From assembly GCA_002686955.1 (NCBI GenBank), contig NYZA01000120.1, forward strand, positions 1,066 through 65,065: a DNA stretch of 64,000 nt, written 5' to 3'. This DNA is from Gemmatimonadota bacterium (GTDB lineage Bacteria; GCA-2686955). Below, one piece after another: positions 814 through 58,887 of this stretch. Each line of letters starts with the position of its first letter. Positions within the stretch are counted from its first letter, which is position 1. A program made the position numbers and the translations under genes. The notes below the pieces were generated by a model that saw only the letters and a list, made by a program, of their open reading frames with translations, was not told the origin of the DNA and did no database searches.

Positions 814-2022
814 TCAGTTATCGAGTGCGTGCACTTCGACCGCGAGCACATGCTCACTCGCGCGGATCTCCTTCAAGGTTTCGGTCTCGGGATCGCGATC
901 GAGCTCGATGCGCGCTACCGCCGCCTCGCCGCCCAAGAAGACGACGTTTTCCATCTGCTGAACGTTGATCCGCGCGGCACGGAGCCGATCGAGCACATTT
1001 GCCAGAACACCGACTCGATCACGGTGACGAATCACGATCACATGTGAAGCCGCTGTTCGGCTGGCGAGATTCACGCAGTTGGGTACATCGCTCTCTTCGA
1101 TCATAGTCTTCACGATTCGCACCGTTTCGGCAGCGACGGCATCCTGGGCCTGGATGGTGGAGGCCCCAATGTGGTGACTCCCCTGCACGCCGGGAAGACG
1201 AAAGAGAGAGGAGTCGATTTCGCCGGTCTTGGCGGACGGCTCACCCGTGAAAACATCGAGCGCGGCCCGCAGGCGCCCAGATCGCAGATGGCGCTCCAGT
1301 GAGGGTTGATCCAGAAGCTCTGCACGTGCCGTGTTGATAACGAGGGCGCCGTGCGGGAGCGCGCCGAGAACCCTGTCGTCGATCAGGCCGCGCGTCTCAT
1401 CGTTCAATGCGAGATGGATGCTCATGATATCGCATTGTCCAGCAACCTCTTCGGGCGAGCTCGCTCTCATCACACCGCACCTCTCGGCCTCCTCCGACGT
1501 CAGGGACCGGCTCCATGCTACGACGTTCATTTCGAAAGCCTTGGCGCGGGGGATCATCTCGCTCCCGATATTGCCGAGCCCGACGAGACCCAAGGTTTTG
1601 CCTTTGATCCCCGCTGCCTTCGCGAACTCCTTCTTGTTCCAGCGCCCTTTGCGGAGCTCGAGCGCACCATCAACCAATCGTCGATCGGTCGACAACAGGT
1701 GGGCGAAGGCTAGCTCGGCGACCGCGACCGCATTCCTCCCCGGGCAGTTCGCCACATAGATTCCTCGGGCGGAGGCCGCCGAGACATCGATGTTGTTGAA
1801 GCCCGCACCGGCCCGGATGATCAGGCCAAGTTTCGGCGCGCAGTCCAAATGGGCTTCCTCCACGCGCGTGCTGCGCACGATGAGCACCTCGGGATTCTCG
1901 CCCGCCAGCGCTTCTTTGAGAGGTTCGCCGTTGAGCTCCGGATCACAGGTCAGGTCGCAGCCGAGCGCGCGCATTGCTTCGAGCCCGGTCTCGGGAAACT
2001 TGTCCGCCAAGAGGATTCTCAT
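814..2022 (-). CDS. serA: D-3-phosphoglycerate dehydrogenase with C-terminal ACT domain
   Basis: RAGAGFNNID, GLVGLGNIG Rossmann motif, NTAR, DVFTGEP, HIGAST; ACT-like tail (HRDRVGVLANV); next to serC. Confidence 0.9.
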   Translation of the reverse strand: MRILLADKFPETGLEAMRALGCDLTCDPELNGEPLKEALAGENPEVLIVRSTRVEEAHLDCAPKLGLIIRAGAGFNNIDVSAASARGIYVANCPGRNAVAVAELAFAHLLSTDRRLVDGALELRKGRWNKKEFAKAAGIKGKTLGLVGLGNIGSEMIPRAKAFEMNVVAWSRSLTSEEAERCGVMRASSPEEVAGQCDIMSIHLALNDETRGLIDDRVLGALPHGALVINTARAELLDQPSLERHLRSGRLRAALDVFTGEPSAKTGEIDSSLFRLPGVQGSHHIGASTIQAQDAVAAETVRIVKTMIEESDVPNCVNLASRTAASHVIVIRHRDRVGVLANVLDRLRAARINVQQMENVVFLGGEAAVARIELDRDPETETLKEIRASEHVLAVEVHALDN

Positions 2023-2066
2023 GCTCGTCCTTTCAGGCCGTCTCGGCCCGACTCATGTCTTTTCTT

Positions 2067-3296
2067 TCAAAACAGGTGGATGACCAATCCCGATCGGAGC
2101 TTGGGTTCGAACCACGTCGATTTCGGGGGAAGGACCCTGCCCGCGTCGGCGACCGCCATCAGTTGGTCGACGCTGAGTGGATGGAGCGAGAATGCAATCC
2201 CCGACCCACGGCGGTCCACCCTTCTCTGAAGCTCGGTCGTTCCCCGAATCCCTCCGACGAATTCGATCCGTTTCGATGTGCGAGGGTCGGAGATGCCCAG
2301 CAGAGGCCCCAGTACGGTGGATTGGAGGATCGCGGCATCGAGCGAGGCGACAGGGTCGGGGTCGGCCAATGCGGACCTTGGCGCGCGCAGACCGTACCAA
2401 CGGCCCCCCAAATAGGCGGAGAAGTGTCCGCGTCGGGGTGGGATCGACGCCGCGTCTTCGACGATCTCGAACACTGCGTCCAGATTCGAAAGCAGTTCGT
2501 CGGTGGTGTGCTCGGCCAGGTCGTGAACGATTCGATTGTAGGCCAGGATTCGCAGCTGATCCGCCGGGAAGAGAACGGCAAGAAAGCGATCGTACTCGCC
2601 GCCCTTTCCGCCGGCCTCCTGGACATCACGAAGCACAGCTCTCGCGCGGCTCGCCGAGGCCGCACGATGGTGGCCATCCGCCACGTACAGAGAGGGGACC
2701 AGCTCGAACGCCCGCTCGAATGGACTGGAGTCGACGACCCGCCAGACCGCATGGGCGATGCCGTCGGGGGCCATGAAATCGTAGACCGGCTCGGTGGACT
2801 CGATCACTTCTCTCACCATTCGGTCGACCGTGGGCTCACCGCGGTAGGTGAGGAATACCGGCCCCGCATGCGCGCGTAGCGAGAGTAGGTGCTTGGTGCG
2901 ATCGTTTTCTTTCTCGGGTCGCGTCGTCTCATGCTTCTTGATCGTATCGGCGTCGTACTCGTCCACCGAGCAGCAGCCGACCACACCGACCTGGGTGTGC
3001 GCGCCCATCTTCTGGCGATAGAGGTAGAGCGCCGGTTCATCGTCCTGGACGAGTACTCGCGAGGCGATCAATCGATCCAGGTTCGTGCGCCCTTGTTGGT
3101 AGACGGACTCGTCGTACGGATCGGTTCCTTCCTCGAGGTCTATTTCGGGGCGAACGACGCGGAGGAAGCTCCGATCGTTCCCCGCGGCCAGGGCGCGAGC
3201 CTCTTCTGTGTCAACGACATCGTAGGGAACGCTCGCCACGCTCGCCGCTTGCGCGGGATCGGGGCGGACGGCTGCGAAGGGGCGAAGGATGGCCAT
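2067..3296 (-). CDS. DUF1015 family protein
   Basis: Start refined to MAILRPF (AGGAG upstream); PYDVV, IKKHETT, YVADGHHR, PPKSTWFEPKLRSGL motifs; usual serA/serC neighbour. Confidence 0.88.
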   Translation of the reverse strand: MAILRPFAAVRPDPAQAASVASVPYDVVDTEEARALAAGNDRSFLRVVRPEIDLEEGTDPYDESVYQQGRTNLDRLIASRVLVQDDEPALYLYRQKMGAHTQVGVVGCCSVDEYDADTIKKHETTRPEKENDRTKHLLSLRAHAGPVFLTYRGEPTVDRMVREVIESTEPVYDFMAPDGIAHAVWRVVDSSPFERAFELVPSLYVADGHHRAASASRARAVLRDVQEAGGKGGEYDRFLAVLFPADQLRILAYNRIVHDLAEHTTDELLSNLDAVFEIVEDAASIPPRRGHFSAYLGGRWYGLRAPRSALADPDPVASLDAAILQSTVLGPLLGISDPRTSKRIEFVGGIRGTTELQRRVDRRGSGIAFSLHPLSVDQLMAVADAGRVLPPKSTWFEPKLRSGLVIHLF

Positions 3297-38277: not shown

Positions 38278-39519
38278 ATGAAGTCCACGCTGCCGTCGAG
38301 CCGCTCTGGACTGGGACGAATCGCTTTCATCGATTTCGCGAGGGCGACCGCGATCGTGTTGGCGTTGTTGTCGCACACGCTGGCCGATTTCGGCGTGTGG
38401 AAGCTGATGGGAGCGGATCTTGCGCTCTTGCCTCATGCCTTCACGCGATCGGCCACGCCGACCTTCGTGCTGCTTTTCGGCATCATGCTGGAGCTCGTGT
38501 ACTTCCCTCGCATCGATAAGTGGGGGATGGAGGGCGTCGCGGAACGATTGCGCCGGCGTAGTTTCCAGTGCTACGCGGCCTATCTCGCCACGGTAGCGGC
38601 CTGTGCGGTGGGCGGAACCCGTCAGCCGGTTCAGGCACTCATGGCCGCCTTTCTAGTGCGAGATGGTTACCTCGGCAACATACTGAAGTTCTATACCGTG
38701 GCCCTTTTGATGGCCATCCCCTTGGTGCGCTTCCGCCACAAGAAGGGGATGACCTGGACGATGCTGCTGGCGGTGGGGATCTGGGCACTGGCCCCCGTCC
38801 TGGAGTGGTTGCCTTGGAAGGGACTGGGAATGCGGACCGATCCGCTGGCGGTGCGCTGCCTGGCCTCATTTTTCTTCGGCGTGGGAAGCGCGACTGGCCC
38901 GAGTGTTTTGAACGGGTTGACTCTGGTCATCCTGGGGATGGGTTTGGGAAACGTGCTTCGCAGGCACAGGCGCGGGGATCTGGCCAGTTTCTATGGGGTT
39001 TGCGTTCTCGTGGCGCTCTTCTGTGGGGCGATCGTGACCTACCTGATCGCGGGGTCCTCGGTGCTCGATGTGGCGCACAACTACGTCAATATTAAGGGGT
39101 ACCGGAACAGCAACCATCCTGGCTACTACGCGATCGGAGCGATTTCGGCGATGGTCATTCTCGTGGCCTCCTCGCTTCTGTCTCCGATAGCCCGGAAGGT
39201 CCCATATCCACTGAGCGCACCCAGGTGCCTGGGTCAATCCTCGCTCTTGGCGTTCACCATGGGCAACATCATCCTCAATCTGAGGCCCCATTCGTGGAAG
39301 CCTTCCGGGGTTGGGGAGGGACTTCTCGCCTCCGCCTGCGTTCTCTTTGCGGTCACGGTCATCGTCCACATTCGACTGCAGGTCACCGCCTGGCTACACA
39401 CGAGGCGCACCGTGCCCGTGGTCGAGCCCCCCGTCGCTCCGGCGGACGCAGCTATTCCCATGCTCGCCGAAGTATCCGTCGCGGATGTGGAGGCGCGGCC
39501 CGTTGGGCCCGCGGTCTGA
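38278..39519 (+). CDS. OpgC-like membrane acyltransferase
   Basis: RIAFIDFARA...SH, FVLLFG, NILKFY, GQSSLLAF; about 10 TM segments. Confidence 0.7.
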   Translation: MKSTLPSSRSGLGRIAFIDFARATAIVLALLSHTLADFGVWKLMGADLALLPHAFTRSATPTFVLLFGIMLELVYFPRIDKWGMEGVAERLRRRSFQCYAAYLATVAACAVGGTRQPVQALMAAFLVRDGYLGNILKFYTVALLMAIPLVRFRHKKGMTWTMLLAVGIWALAPVLEWLPWKGLGMRTDPLAVRCLASFFFGVGSATGPSVLNGLTLVILGMGLGNVLRRHRRGDLASFYGVCVLVALFCGAIVTYLIAGSSVLDVAHNYVNIKGYRNSNHPGYYAIGAISAMVILVASSLLSPIARKVPYPLSAPRCLGQSSLLAFTMGNIILNLRPHSWKPSGVGEGLLASACVLFAVTVIVHIRLQVTAWLHTRRTVPVVEPPVAPADAAIPMLAEVSVADVEARPVGPAV

Positions 39520-39570
39520 AGGTCGTTTCCGGCCGATCGCCAGACCCTGAAGGCCTCGAAGTAGCGCTGG

Positions 39571-55058: not shown

Positions 55059-57218
55059 CTATGCAACCCAATGCTCGGCGCGCGGATCCCCTTCCGAGAT
55101 CTCGATGCGAATGGTGTCATGCTCCGGAAATGAAACGGGATCATCGCCTTTGTCGCGATGCAGTATTAGACGCAGTGCCAGTTCCATTCCCGGTCTTGCT
55201 CCCAGCAAATCCAGTGGACACGCAAGCTCGAGACAGTTCGCATAGGCTACTTCTATTCCGGTGCCGGCGATCGGCGTCCAGAGATCCTCTCTTCCGTCGC
55301 CGTCTTCGAAGCGGGCTGTGATCGGGTCGGATTGTGAGGACATCTCGATGCACAGGCGACGGCGGCACGGCTTCACGAACTCGATCGTTAGACGCGATCC
55401 AGGAGAGAGCACGCTGTCGAGCGAAGCGCCGTTTCCGCTGAGGAGCAGGTACAAGGTCGCGGGATCGAAGCCGAAACGAAGATGTCCAAATGGTGGCGCT
55501 TCATCGGAGCGATGCGCCGGCCCTTGCGGGGATCCGATCTCCGCCACTCCTCCCTCGAGCCACTCGAAATAGTGGGTGACCTCGCCGTCGATGATTGGGC
55601 GGAGATGCGCCCGCGGCATACGCACCCGGGGACCTTGTGCCGCAAGATTCGCGATCGGCGCCAGGAGCTCGGCGGGAACGGGTTGTCCCACGAGCTCGTA
55701 CACCCGTTGAAGGTGAGCACGGTAGAGGCGATCGAAAAGATCGAGATCGGGCGTATGGTGGTCCGGGCCGTACCACCAGTTCCAATCCGAGCCCTCCGCG
55801 ATGTGAATCTGCTTCCAGGCCGCCGCTCGCGTTTCTCCGTCCAGCCCCTTCTCGTGGCGCGTCAGGCATTCGCGCGCTCTGGCGAGAAGATCCCAAGCAT
55901 GATTGTCTTCCGCGTGACCGATCCAAACCGAGAAATCGGATCGAATCCATGAGCCGGCTCTTATTCGGCCGAGCTCCGCCACGGCACAGTCCCGCTCTTC
56001 CACCAGATCGCCGATCGTTCGGCATCGAATATCGGGAGCCGCCGCCAACGATTCGTAGAGCTGTCGAAGGAAGGGCGCCCCATCCTCGGGGAAATGCTCC
56101 CAGGCGTTCTCTCCGTCTAGAATGAGCGGAATGACACATTTGTCCGGATCGGAGCTTTGCGCCGCGCGCCGCCGTATTCGCGTCAACAGATCTTCGACCG
56201 CCTCGCTCGCGCCCCATTTCGAGTAGACGAATCCGATCCGATCCGAGAGCGTATGGTCTCTGAAGACCATTGCGACATCTTCGAAGAGGTAGAGCTTCAT
56301 GGGATCGGCGCGGGGATCGACCGATTGTTTCAGGACCTCTTCATCCGAAGCGCACCACTTGAAGCCCTCCTCCCCTACAAGGCGCAGGGCTGATTCGCTG
56401 ACAGAGCCTTCGGCCGGCCAGAGCCCAACGGGCTCGGTGCCGAAGTGTCGAAAATATGTCTCCTTGGCCGCCACGATCTGAGAACGTGCGTCCTCGATAT
56501 GCGCGAACGGAATCCGAGGTAGATCGATCGCCGGAAGCGCTTCTCGCGCGGAGCGATGATCGATCAGCAAGGGCAGAATCGGGTGGTAGAAGGGGGTCGT
56601 GCTGATCTCGAGTCGGCCGGCTTCGGCGAGCGATCGATAGGTAGGCACGATTCTGCCCAGTAGCTCCCGATGCAGATCGAGCACGCCCCGCACATCGGCC
56701 ATCGTGAAATCGCGGTCCTTCTCGAGCAGCTCCGCGGCACAGGTGCCCCTTCGCAGAGTCGGATCGACCCAGGCGAGGTTGAAATGAACCGCGAGGTCGA
56801 TGTAGTCCTGGGTGGAAAAACGAGGGGCCGCGTCGGCGAGCGATCGACGATCGTCTCCACGCTCGAGCAGAAGCTCGTAGTAGCGGGGCGAAGGGCGGAT
56901 CATCGTCGGGCCGTGGGCGCTGAAGAAGTGGCGGAGCATCTTCTCGGCTTCTTCGGCGCTGAGGGAGTCAGCCCGGAGCGACCACTGCTCGAACTCGTCA
57001 ATCGCACCTCCGCCGACATAGTCCTCGACCTGCTCGAGCAGAGAAGGCACGAGGTTGAAGTTCACCGCGACCCCGTCCACCGCCGCGGAGACGAGCGGCA
57101 TGTCCACATAGTCCTTGGCGGCGTGCAGGCGCACCCAGGGCAGCTCGTAGATACCGGTTTTCGGGTGCCGATAGTGTGGCTGGTGCATGTGCCAGAGAAT
57201 GACGAGGTTGATCGGCAT
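55059..57218 (-). CDS. Glycoside hydrolase family 57
   Basis: WHMHQPHY, PWVRLHAAKDY, PFYHPILPLL, LWPAEGSVS, LDGENAWE, AEGSDWNWW. Confidence 0.93.
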   Translation of the reverse strand: MPINLVILWHMHQPHYRHPKTGIYELPWVRLHAAKDYVDMPLVSAAVDGVAVNFNLVPSLLEQVEDYVGGGAIDEFEQWSLRADSLSAEEAEKMLRHFFSAHGPTMIRPSPRYYELLLERGDDRRSLADAAPRFSTQDYIDLAVHFNLAWVDPTLRRGTCAAELLEKDRDFTMADVRGVLDLHRELLGRIVPTYRSLAEAGRLEISTTPFYHPILPLLIDHRSAREALPAIDLPRIPFAHIEDARSQIVAAKETYFRHFGTEPVGLWPAEGSVSESALRLVGEEGFKWCASDEEVLKQSVDPRADPMKLYLFEDVAMVFRDHTLSDRIGFVYSKWGASEAVEDLLTRIRRRAAQSSDPDKCVIPLILDGENAWEHFPEDGAPFLRQLYESLAAAPDIRCRTIGDLVEERDCAVAELGRIRAGSWIRSDFSVWIGHAEDNHAWDLLARARECLTRHEKGLDGETRAAAWKQIHIAEGSDWNWWYGPDHHTPDLDLFDRLYRAHLQRVYELVGQPVPAELLAPIANLAAQGPRVRMPRAHLRPIIDGEVTHYFEWLEGGVAEIGSPQGPAHRSDEAPPFGHLRFGFDPATLYLLLSGNGASLDSVLSPGSRLTIEFVKPCRRRLCIEMSSQSDPITARFEDGDGREDLWTPIAGTGIEVAYANCLELACPLDLLGARPGMELALRLILHRDKGDDPVSFPEHDTIRIEISEGDPRAEHWVA

Positions 57219-57244
57219 ACTCGGTCCATCGGACCATCATTGCT

Positions 57245-57720
57245 TTACTTCTCCTTCGACGGTGGCCGGTAAAGGGTTCGCGCAAGAATAGCTTGTCATT
57301 TTGGCGCCCAGATGTGCCGCGGATCTGGTCGATCGCCGATCTTCGAAACCGGAGGAATAGCAGAGCCATTTCGAGGATTTCGGAGGTCGGCGATCGGCCG
57401 GAGACGTCGTACAGATGGGATGCCAAATGACAAGTCATTCTTGCGCGGACCCAAAGCAGAAAGGTCCGTCCGATCTGGCCGGCGCACTCCGCCTCGACCG
57501 CGGCGGCGAGGGCCGTGGCGACCTTGGGCCGTTCGAGAGGGCATTCCCGCGCGAGCCTCACCTTGATCAGCTCGTTGGCGTCCAGACATTCTCGGACCGA
57601 CTGAATCACAGCTTCGGTCGGTCCTGCCTTTCCGAGGGTCACCGCGGCGGTCAACCTCTGCCCGGCGCGGCGCAGCTCGGCCCGATCCCGACTCTGGAGC
57701 GGCAGCGGATAGACCCTCAC
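57245..57720 (-). pseudogene. yhbY: YhbY RNA-binding protein, frameshifted at codon 90 by a MITE-like insertion
   Basis: LRRAGQRL...LGKAG...NELIKVR...QIGRTFLL; removing 57274-57452 plus one AAA gives ...IGRTFLLYRPPSKEK* (97 aa, TAA at 57247-57245). As is, the frame reads through to 56998. Confidence 0.8.
57274..57452. mobile_element. 179-bp palindromic MITE-like element with AAA target-site duplication
   Basis: 44-bp imperfect terminal inverted repeats (57274-57317 / 57409-57452), inner 22-bp arms (57327-57348 / 57378-57399), flanking AAA at 57271-57273 and 57453-57455. Confidence 0.82.
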
Positions 57721-58887
57721 TCAGCCTCTCCGAGCATCCAACAGCCCATCGTATTCCTCTCGATAGAAAGCGGCCATGCGGTCCGCCGCGAAGAGCTCAC
57801 GGGCACGGCGACGGCCGCCCTCCGCCAGTCGCCGCGCTTCGTCGCGGTCGCGGAGCAGCCGGAGGATAGCGTCGGCCAGCTCCTTCGCTCGGCGAGGCGG
57901 CACCAGAAGCCCACTCCGCTCGTGTTCGATCACCTCGTTGTTCCCCTCGGTGTCGGATGCGACCACCGGCACGCCGAGGGCCATCGCCTCCATCAGCACC
58001 AGACTCGAGCCCTCGCCGAAGATCGACGGGAGAACTTTGACGCTGAGCGAGGAAAGTAACTCGGGCACGTCCTCCCGGAAACCGATGGTTCGCACCCGTT
58101 CCGAAACGCCACGCTCCCGAACTCGTCGCCGCAGCACTTCCAGGTAGTCCTCGCCCTCGACCCAATCCCCGTGGCCGGCCAGCACCAGCCGCGCCTCGGG
58201 GAGCTCCTCGAGCACATGGGCCATGGCGTCGATCAGATACTCAGCCCCTTTTCTCGGGCGGAAGCTCGCCACCATGCCCACGAGCGGAGCGTGCTCCGAT
58301 AGCCCGAGCTCGGCGCGCAAAGCGGGGCGATAGGGCGCCGCATCGATGAGTGCCGGATCGAAGCTGTTGTAGACCACGCGGATCTTCCTCTTTGGAACCC
58401 CGAGAGATCGGAGGTCGTCGGCAACGGCACGGCTTACCGCGATATATCGCGTCGTCAGAAACGATGTGATCCGCTCGACGATCGCGTTGACCCGCCCGGG
58501 CGATTGGGCGTTAGTGTCTCGGGAGATCGGTGCCTGCACGATCGTCAAGATCGGGACTCCACTGATCAGCCGGGCCAGGCGACCTATAAGGTTCGTTCGG
58601 GCCGTTTGGGTCACTATCAGATCGGGGTGGACCCGATCGATCACCTTCGCCAGCCTGAGCGCGACGCCCAGATCGGCCTTGCCGCGCATCGACATGATTT
58701 CAACCGGGATTCCGAGCTCTTCCACCCGTTCGCGGAGCAGGCCGTCGGCCAGACAGACCAGTATGGGCTCGAAGCGGGAGCGATCGGTGTACTTGAGCAG
58801 CAGATAGAGCGACTGCTCGCCACCGCTCCAATGCTCGCCGTGAATCAGGTGAAGAACGCGCCGGGGAGGAGGAGCCGAAGAGCTCAA
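57721..58887 (-). CDS. Glycosyltransferase family 4
   Basis: VLHLIHGEHWSGGE, RPRKG, GFREDV, EGSSLVLMEAMALGVPVVAS; TTG start overlapping the upstream stop. Confidence 0.92.
   Translation of the reverse strand: MSSSAPPPRRVLHLIHGEHWSGGEQSLYLLLKYTDRSRFEPILVCLADGLLRERVEELGIPVEIMSMRGKADLGVALRLAKVIDRVHPDLIVTQTARTNLIGRLARLISGVPILTIVQAPISRDTNAQSPGRVNAIVERITSFLTTRYIAVSRAVADDLRSLGVPKRKIRVVYNSFDPALIDAAPYRPALRAELGLSEHAPLVGMVASFRPRKGAEYLIDAMAHVLEELPEARLVLAGHGDWVEGEDYLEVLRRRVRERGVSERVRTIGFREDVPELLSSLSVKVLPSIFGEGSSLVLMEAMALGVPVVASDTEGNNEVIEHERSGLLVPPRRAKELADAILRLLRDRDEARRLAEGGRRRARELFAADRMAAFYREEYDGLLDARRG

Follow-up and report, generated by a model that had tools for sequence, protein, structure and literature searches.

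A probable G+C-rich miniature transposable element in yhbY of a marine Gemmatimonadota bacterium, with a hairpin that looks selected on one strand

The subject of this report is a 179-bp near-palindromic element in the 3' end of the gene yhbY, at positions 57274 to 57452 of a 64,000-nucleotide window on contig NYZA01000120.1 (assembly GCA_002686955.1) from a Gemmatimonadota bacterium. The element is very probably a miniature inverted-repeat transposable element (MITE), a non-autonomous DNA transposon of a G+C-rich family, which inserted in yhbY after the split from another species of the same genus and whose hairpin appears to be selected on one strand. It is of an ordinary kind, except that the hairpin looks selected on one strand only. 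The original prediction, made from the window alone, had proposed a non-autonomous mobile element, and dispersed copies, 3-bp duplications and an empty site in a same-genus relative all bear this out. The source genome, designated G000, is a metagenome bin from an uncultured marine bacterium (4.28 Mb in 270 contigs, 84.5% complete, 63.4% G+C). It was compared within a sample of 401 genomes, of which five, G000 to G004, make up the phylum-level set. G001 belongs to the same genus as G000, G003 to another genus of the same phylum, and G173 and G250 lie outside the phylum.

The element shows four of the five features that define a MITE. It is small and has no coding capacity of its own; most full-length copies measure 177-182 bp and match no protein or RNA family. 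Copies from G000, G001, G003, G173 and G250 share the same terminal inverted repeats, the target-site duplication has a fixed length of 3 bp, and dispersed copies occur together with a filled and an empty site between relatives. The fifth feature is an autonomous partner with the same termini. In the window, the predicted near-palindrome with matching ends and an inner pair of arms was recovered, its ends lying at 57274 and 57452. The left terminal inverted repeat (57274 to 57294, + strand) is of the A-type, begins GGGTTCGCGCAAGAAT..., and is kept in the 42 full-length copies aligned with their flanks, while the right one (57432 to 57452, - strand) begins, as the reverse complement, with GGGTCCGCGCAAGAAT... 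The AAA noted on both sides is present at 57271 to 57273 and at 57453 to 57455, as left and right target-site duplications. A repeat finder places the arms at 57274-57361 and 57365-57452, each 88 nt long, 73% Watson-Crick complementary and 3 nt apart, with an inner pair at 57335-57346 and 57387-57398.

Throughout, the + strand of the element is the one that folds better, and in the window it lies antisense to the yhbY-GH57 operon; in other copies it was assigned by similarity to the window copy, 57274-57452. Folded as RNA, the + strand forms a single rod of -126.3 kcal/mol (z -15.1), a value equalled by none of 200 shuffles. The - strand reaches -93.3 kcal/mol (z -9.0), a difference that agrees with the earlier remark that the arm mismatches are G·U-compatible on the + strand. 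Under DNA energy parameters, the + strand gives -59.1 and the - strand -51.2 kcal/mol. An Rfam scan of the element, suggested at the outset to exclude 6S RNA, returned no family at its gathering score, the best being microRNA models at 24.6 bits against cut-offs of at least 80; the hits, all to microRNA or snoRNA models, were taken as chance matches. A weak 55-nt match to the inner part of the MITE (79% identity), at 39515-39569 of the window, may be a chance resemblance or an old fragment.

A profile built from the first hits and run with nhmmer found 135 non-overlapping matches in the G000 assembly. Both termini are present in 64 elements: 40 measure 150-240 bp, 21 measure 79-99 bp and retain about 43 nt of each end, and three measure 40-57 bp, barely more than two termini. 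By manual count, at least 19 further matches stop at contig ends, so that family copies explain part of the fragmentation of the assembly. The family has a length of about 180 bp, is G+C-rich and almost wholly self-complementary, and carries terminal inverted repeats of about 21 bp. These come in two types with a common core, A-type GGGTYCGCGCAAGAAT, as in the window copy, and B-type GGGTCGGCGAAGAAAT. The 42 full-length copies aligned with flanks have the same termini, with 3 nt bracketing each.

Across the 64 two-ended elements, the 3-nt flanks are identical in 32 and differ by one base in 25. The identical pairs are TTA (12), TAA (9), TCA (5), AAA (3), and TGA, TTG and ATA (1 each). With both flanks pooled, position 1 is T in 78%, position 2 is A or T in 90% and position 3 is A in 89%; TAA and TTA together make up only 0.23% of the triplets in G000. 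The expectation of dispersed copies with 3-bp duplications is thereby confirmed, with flanks of T-W-A type, and AAA brackets two other full-length copies, on C144 and C250, besides the one in the window. By an ad hoc and crude gene caller, 39 of the 64 insertions are intergenic, 4 fall exactly on a stop codon and 21 are genic, most of these last only some dozens of bases from the end of a gene. Several more of the 64 come within 45 nt of a stop codon. Such gene-end positions would fit T-W-A targeting in a G+C-rich genome.

The insertion point lies 8 codons ahead of the yhbY stop. The first 88 codons of yhbY, with nearly the whole CRM domain, occupy 57456 to 57720 on the - strand, and the last 8 codons plus the stop, severed from the gene, occupy 57245 to 57270 on the same strand, as identified by in-silico excision and by homologous tails in G001 and G003. 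Removing the element and one AAA in silico reproduces the predicted 97-aa YhbY, ending QIGRTFLLYRPPSKEK with the junction GGTAAAGCAG, and leaves a 26-nt spacer before the GH57 ATG. An empty allele of this description exists in G001, where nothing separates the element's flanks and the stretch is 182 bp shorter; positions 1-575 and 756-1301 of the query align to 998-1572 and 454-999 of one contig. Its sequence, ...CCGGTAGAGCAGG..., differs from the predicted GGTAAAGCAG by one substitution. The G001 yhbY encodes 97 aa ending IGRTFLLYRPASKAK and is followed by GH57 in the same gene order, and the YhbY of G003 is likewise intact, at 99 aa with the same LLLYRPP end. Intact genes in both relatives indicate that the insertion is specific to the G000 lineage, and the empty site with its intact 97-aa YhbY shows it to be recent and real. 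The nearest paralogues of the window copy in G000 are 93% identical to it. In G003 (L063, contig C35, about 2007-3128), some 1.1 kb separates yhbY from GH57 and contains two extra open reading frames (ORFs), one of them resembling the C-terminal part of an ATPase; this stretch is absent from G000 and G001.

That the yhbY insertion is an artefact, a repeat misplaced during assembly of the metagenome bin, has next to no probability in our estimate. The assembly is incomplete and in 270 contigs, and the repeat breaks many of them. The AAA duplication is nevertheless perfect at both junctions, and the flanks differ from those of G001 by exactly the element plus 3 bp. Contigs from run X1, a public marine metagenome that may be the source sample, pass without mismatch from the unique flanks 29 and 30 nt into the element, at the depth of the flanks, about 8-9; within the element the depths sum to about 1500. 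The suggested check across both junctions came out in favour, both ends being entered cleanly. None of the contigs listed spans the whole element, and, the bridging rule being 31 letters, reaches of 29 and 30 lend the junctions weak support. In one X1 contig the element's right end is linked back to its left end (57452 to 57272, going back 181, side 31), and at C17:57845/57849 of G000 two family termini abut head to tail with one TTA in common. The joint in the X1 contig could be either abutting copies elsewhere or a circle junction.

The strand preference seen in the window copy extends through the family. The + strand folds better in 42 of 42 copies from G000, with a mean difference of 30.5 kcal/mol, in 26 of 27 copies from G001 and G003, and in 15 of 15 from G173 and G250. 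Pairing was analysed in an alignment of 50 copies from G000, G001 and G003 with 73 consensus pairs. Compensatory double changes occur in 37 of the 73 pairs, and columns 21-25 and 157-161 exist in several mutually complementary forms. At paired columns, G·U cells outnumber A·C cells 503 to 59, and pairing is retained in 95.4% on the + strand versus 83.2% on the - strand. At five pairs, wobble is the majority state in each of the three genomes; copies from G173 and G250 have 8-13 G·U pairs each. Changes were also counted on a maximum-likelihood tree of the copies with parsimony states. On internal branches, Watson-Crick pairs became G·U 31 times and A·C 5 times (p 1e-5), and on terminal branches 106 and 45 times. 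Unpaired columns show no strand bias, the two transition classes standing at 23 and 23. A strand-biased mutation process should have marked unpaired columns too. The suggestion that the structure is selected as RNA or single-stranded DNA finds support in this asymmetry between G·U and A·C.

These patterns point to a constraint that would be exerted, by way of a single-stranded form with a fixed polarity, on the elements from which new copies arise. We think this form is likelier to be RNA than single-stranded DNA, because the energy gap between strands of the window copy is 33 kcal/mol with RNA parameters and 8 with DNA parameters. The footprints suggest a mechanism in which a transposase supplied in trans would cut the MITE out and paste it in, with cuts staggered by 3 nt at triplets of T-W-A-like sequence, scarce in a genome of 63% G+C. 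Once the same-genus species had diverged, the window copy would have entered an AAA located 8 codons short of the yhbY stop, sparing the CRM domain. The hairpin would be more than a by-product of inverted repeats, in that lineages spawning copies would keep one strand foldable, tolerating G·U and not A·C.

Several points weigh against this account. Transposition itself is read from footprints, and no cognate transposase was found in the five MITE-bearing assemblies, which are 84-98% complete; the original prediction had named no transposase family, and these searches supplied none either. The target of the window copy is AAA, not the commonest T-W-A. Overall, one strand has the better fold, by 10-58 kcal/mol, in 83 of the 84 full-length copies, but these are not independent observations, as the copies share one ancestor and were oriented by similarity. 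Singleton changes confined to G000 lack the asymmetry, with 24 to G·U and 19 to A·C. Orientation to neighbouring genes is random (41 co-oriented versus 57 opposite, p 0.13, with a crude gene caller), so host read-through transcripts cannot explain a strand-specific RNA. A scan for a sigma-70-like promoter or an intrinsic terminator in or beside the window copy found 0 sites, and a look through public runs listed no RNA run with the element.

An autonomous partner was sought among the transposases of these genomes, and two insertion sequences (IS) with MITE termini at their borders must be considered. Orphan MITE termini led to the first, a 2.5-kb element on contig C108 of G000 (L053, C108:63300-66500, about 184-2660; other loci are L055, L054 and, in G173, L307 on C77). 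It contains a helix-turn-helix (HTH) ORF and a 607-aa ORF that matches Transposase_29 (PF21804) end to end, E 3e-190. That this IS mobilises the family, with the MITE as its deletion derivative, we consider very unlikely. The IS also makes 3-bp duplications, every visible IS end in G000 (C99, C102, C108, C22, C131) adjoins the outermost 20 nt of a MITE terminus, giving at first sight a shared 21-nt end, and IS and MITE co-occur in G000, in G003 (as a remnant) and in G173. In other taxa, however, the IS starts TCAGA... and duplicates triplets of any sequence (CCC, GGT, ACC, GAT, ATT, GGG). Multi-copy relatives in metagenome-assembled genomes of Methyloprofundus and Desulfobulbus are about 2.41 kb long, start TCAGA... 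and have 3-bp duplications, and across three lineages the termini are TCAGA... with the MITE sequence outside them, so the two do not have the same termini. The C108 copy is a plain insertion in the right arm of a MITE with AGT duplicated on both sides, and the intact G173 copy, whose open frame spans 734 aa, is not in a MITE at all and has duplicated ACT in ...TAAACTTGG... The sequence ...ATAACTTGT... is present in each MITE arm, so that a target preference of the IS would explain the nesting. No such gene was found in MITE-bearing G001 and G250, and an unscored comparison by eye revealed no obvious resemblance between the MITE terminus and the ends of the IS proper.

The second candidate, an IS630-family element of G003, is bounded by perfect B-type MITE termini, and it is very unlikely that it mobilises the family. 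In its favour, the 1133-bp element (C1:14694-15826) has GGGTCGGCGAAGAAAT at both ends and an intact 343-aa IS630-family transposase (NF033545, E 4e-73), and IS630 elements are proposed in PMC2229807 as movers of the pneumococcal RUP MITE. Against it, among 76 metagenome relatives, 36 of the 43 whose terminal repeats were found by script start (T)TACTAA..., a sequence that corresponds to the inner part of the G003 element's ends, and in none do the six bases outside the ends resemble the MITE terminus. The G003 copy reads MITE-end (15 nt), TA, IS, TA, MITE-end (15 nt), a layout that indicates that an IS630-type element entered a palindrome made of termini only, at its central TA. A remnant in G001 ends ...CTTAG-TA and continues into non-MITE DNA, and searches of G000, G173 and G250 for an IS630-type gene found none. 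MITE duplications include TCA, TGA and AAA, which lack TA, and their 3-bp length is unlike a RUP-like derivation from IS630, whose family ends read CTAA... after TA. Judged by their sequences, the Transposase_29 and IS630 elements are nested inside MITE termini and are not parents of the MITE. A different proposal, that the repeat is a hairpin recombination site or an element transposed as a single strand (of the REP/RAYT or integron attC kind) and not a cut-and-paste MITE, is highly improbable. It would account for the retention of structure over sequence in parts of the arms, such as columns 21-25 and 157-161, and for the favoured strand. It does not sit well with clear terminal inverted repeats and 3-bp direct duplications, with the exact empty site in G001, with internal-deletion derivatives that retain both termini, or with copies that are single and dispersed and form no arrays. 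REP and attC elements are not known to make such 3-bp duplications.

With the cut-and-paste MITE as the preferred reading, an IS5-type or Harbinger-like enzyme is our best guess for the mover, a guess drawn from the footprint alone (3 bp, T-W-A, G-rich termini) and from the general properties of these families. The IS5-family subgroups IS1031, ISL2 and IS427, together with their eukaryotic relatives PIF/Harbinger and the Tourist MITEs, make 3-bp T-N-A or T-W-A duplications and have termini starting with G. The 3-bp T-W-A duplication and G-led termini of the present family would thus make the IS1031, ISL2 and IS427 groups its best footprint match. A transposase of this kind was not found: Pfam searches gave no DDE_Tnp_4 in the whole genomes G000 to G004 and no DDE_Tnp_1_2 in seven whole genomes. 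Comparison of G000 with itself for repeats of at least 300 bp found no IS with MITE termini. Literature searches on PF21804 and on IS630/MITE/TNA returned nothing on this MITE family.

Other candidate mobilisers were set aside. DDE_Tnp_1 genes (IS4- or IS701-like) have ends unrelated to the MITE, as does an IS30-family transposase split over C22:2-676 and C147:3-227 of G000. Pairs of MITE termini 0.3-6 kb apart in G000 enclose ordinary genes. Locus L253 of G001 (C295:1400-4000), where a short MITE and a solo MITE terminus 2007 bp apart bracket a 539-aa amidohydrolase-like gene, resembles a composite element and has no transposase. Another repeat of G000, about 1.8 kb and 90% alike among its copies (C163:9106-10891, C132:1-1025, C11:1-521, C18:19044-19520, C176:2528-2858), has a long ORF that ends in an HNH-nuclease-like motif.

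Nesting also occurs in the reverse direction. At locus L051 of G001 (C805, 843-1022) a B-type MITE with TTA duplications interrupts the remnant of a DDE_Tnp_1 transposase. The intact IS630-family element of G003 (L149, C1:13700-16800, 995-2127) sits exactly in the central TA of a 32-nt palindrome of two termini and so imitates an autonomous "parent". Two unrelated IS types nest in these MITE repeats, and shared "ends" can therefore mislead the pairing of a MITE with a transposase.

The Transposase_29 elements appear to form an uncatalogued IS family. Members measure about 2.4-2.5 kb and have an N-terminal HTH, with the transposase either fused to it (about 750 aa) or in a separate ORF. Remnants occur in G000 on C99, C102 and C22. 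Residues D183, D274 and E378 (in RWSQENFF) are invariant in 19 sequences. Relatives from many phyla form at least 7995 protein clusters, and the contigs that carry them are mostly 2-3 kb long. A search of 14 control genomes found none, a plasmid collection gave no match to the protein, no NCBIfam transposase model matches it, and the PDB holds no sequence relative. Its predicted structure is poor (pLDDT 59.9, pTM 0.34). A Foldseek search with that model placed Tn5 transposase in all of the top six hits, E 2.6e-3 to 1.1e-2 with TM at most 0.25, which is only a hint of a Tn5-like fold.

At the yhbY locus, the element opens an aberrant 240-aa read-through ORF (56998 to 57720, - strand) that passes through the MITE, whose frame in use has no stop codon by a scripted check, and continues out of frame for 221 nt into GH57, close to the overlap of about 220 nt given in the original prediction. 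The GH57 glycoside hydrolase gene (55059 to 57218, - strand; Glyco_hydro_57, E 5.6e-59) lies downstream in the same operon-like row, and a family-4/group-1 glycosyltransferase gene (57721 to 58887, - strand) abuts the yhbY start upstream, in the same order as in G001. The disrupted protein still matches CRS1_YhbY (E 1.3e-17) over profile positions 1-83 of 84, so the CRM domain survives and only the tail is replaced: the natural 8 residues are exchanged for a predicted read-through of 152. A tblastn search of the G000 assembly found no second yhbY-like match. On a shared operon transcript, the weaker version of the hairpin, -93 kcal/mol, would stand between yhbY and GH57, and ribosomes reading through the element would cross the GH57 ribosome-binding region in another frame. 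Translation of GH57 may be lowered or coupled by the read-through, and the hairpin may serve as a processing site. The MITE insertion thus explains the aberrant 240-aa "gene" of G000, whose only yhbY copy has lost its natural end.

The family is present in 5 of the 401 genomes, G000, G001, G003, G173 and G250, and was not found in G002 or G004 of the same phylum. Searches with a terminus pattern, compared with a reversed-pattern control, gave 129 hits versus 1 in G001, 64 versus 1 in G003, 165 versus 1 in G173 and 37 versus 1 in G250. Copies in G173 (98% complete) and G250 (92%) are 69-77% identical over the full length and 80-90% over some short partial matches. A search of 72,556 plasmids found no match to the element, and exact 16-mers of both terminus types hit 34 loci in viral contigs, 0 of them with MITE-like sequence. 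That two of the five genomes lie outside the phylum suggests that the family has spread horizontally among marine bacteria.

Among known bacterial repeats, the family resembles RUP of Streptococcus pneumoniae, Correia/NEMIS of Neisseria and ERIC of enterobacteria, whose general properties are given in PMC2229807. Shared features are a length of less than 200 bp, terminal inverted repeats, a duplicated target, a copy number of about 100 per genome, the lack of a gene of their own, a mostly intergenic placement, an RNA hairpin that can sit in operon transcripts, and occasional fusions with reading frames. According to PMC2229807, RUP inserts into IS elements and inactivates transposase genes; that direction, MITE into IS, is seen here at one locus, L051, while at the other nested loci the IS lies inside the MITE. 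Most bacterial MITEs in that account are A+T-rich with a TA motif at their ends, whereas the present one has a high G+C content, GGG...CCC at its ends and a 3-bp duplication (T-W-A). It also departs from RUP, Correia/NEMIS and ERIC in that nearly its whole length forms one rod, with a strong one-strand G·U signature and no bias of orientation to host genes. Rickettsia palindromic elements (RPE) are mentioned there as MITEs inside reading frames. Unlike the RPE case, the yhbY insertion is found in G000 only, and not in G001 or G003. RPE resemble the present case in being palindromic repeats in a conserved gene with an open frame through the repeat, and differ in adding an in-frame peptide, whereas the insertion here destroys the stop and runs into the next gene.

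With this family, the few bacterial MITEs on record gain a G+C-rich one whose duplications are 3 bp long and of T-W-A type; the phylum it comes from is represented by only five species genomes among those searched. Instead of inert selfish DNA, the family could, though this is doubtful, be a mobile gene for a structured RNA, or else an element obliged to pass through a folded single strand of fixed polarity. On this reading, the + strand would be a rod of about 180 nt with conserved wobble pairs under purifying selection, whichever way the copies face relative to host genes, and the element would carry its own signal for that strand, for example an internal promoter for a regulatory or transposition-guiding RNA. 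The one-strand wobble signature makes the family a clean and testable case for asking whether the hairpins of MITEs are selected as RNA.

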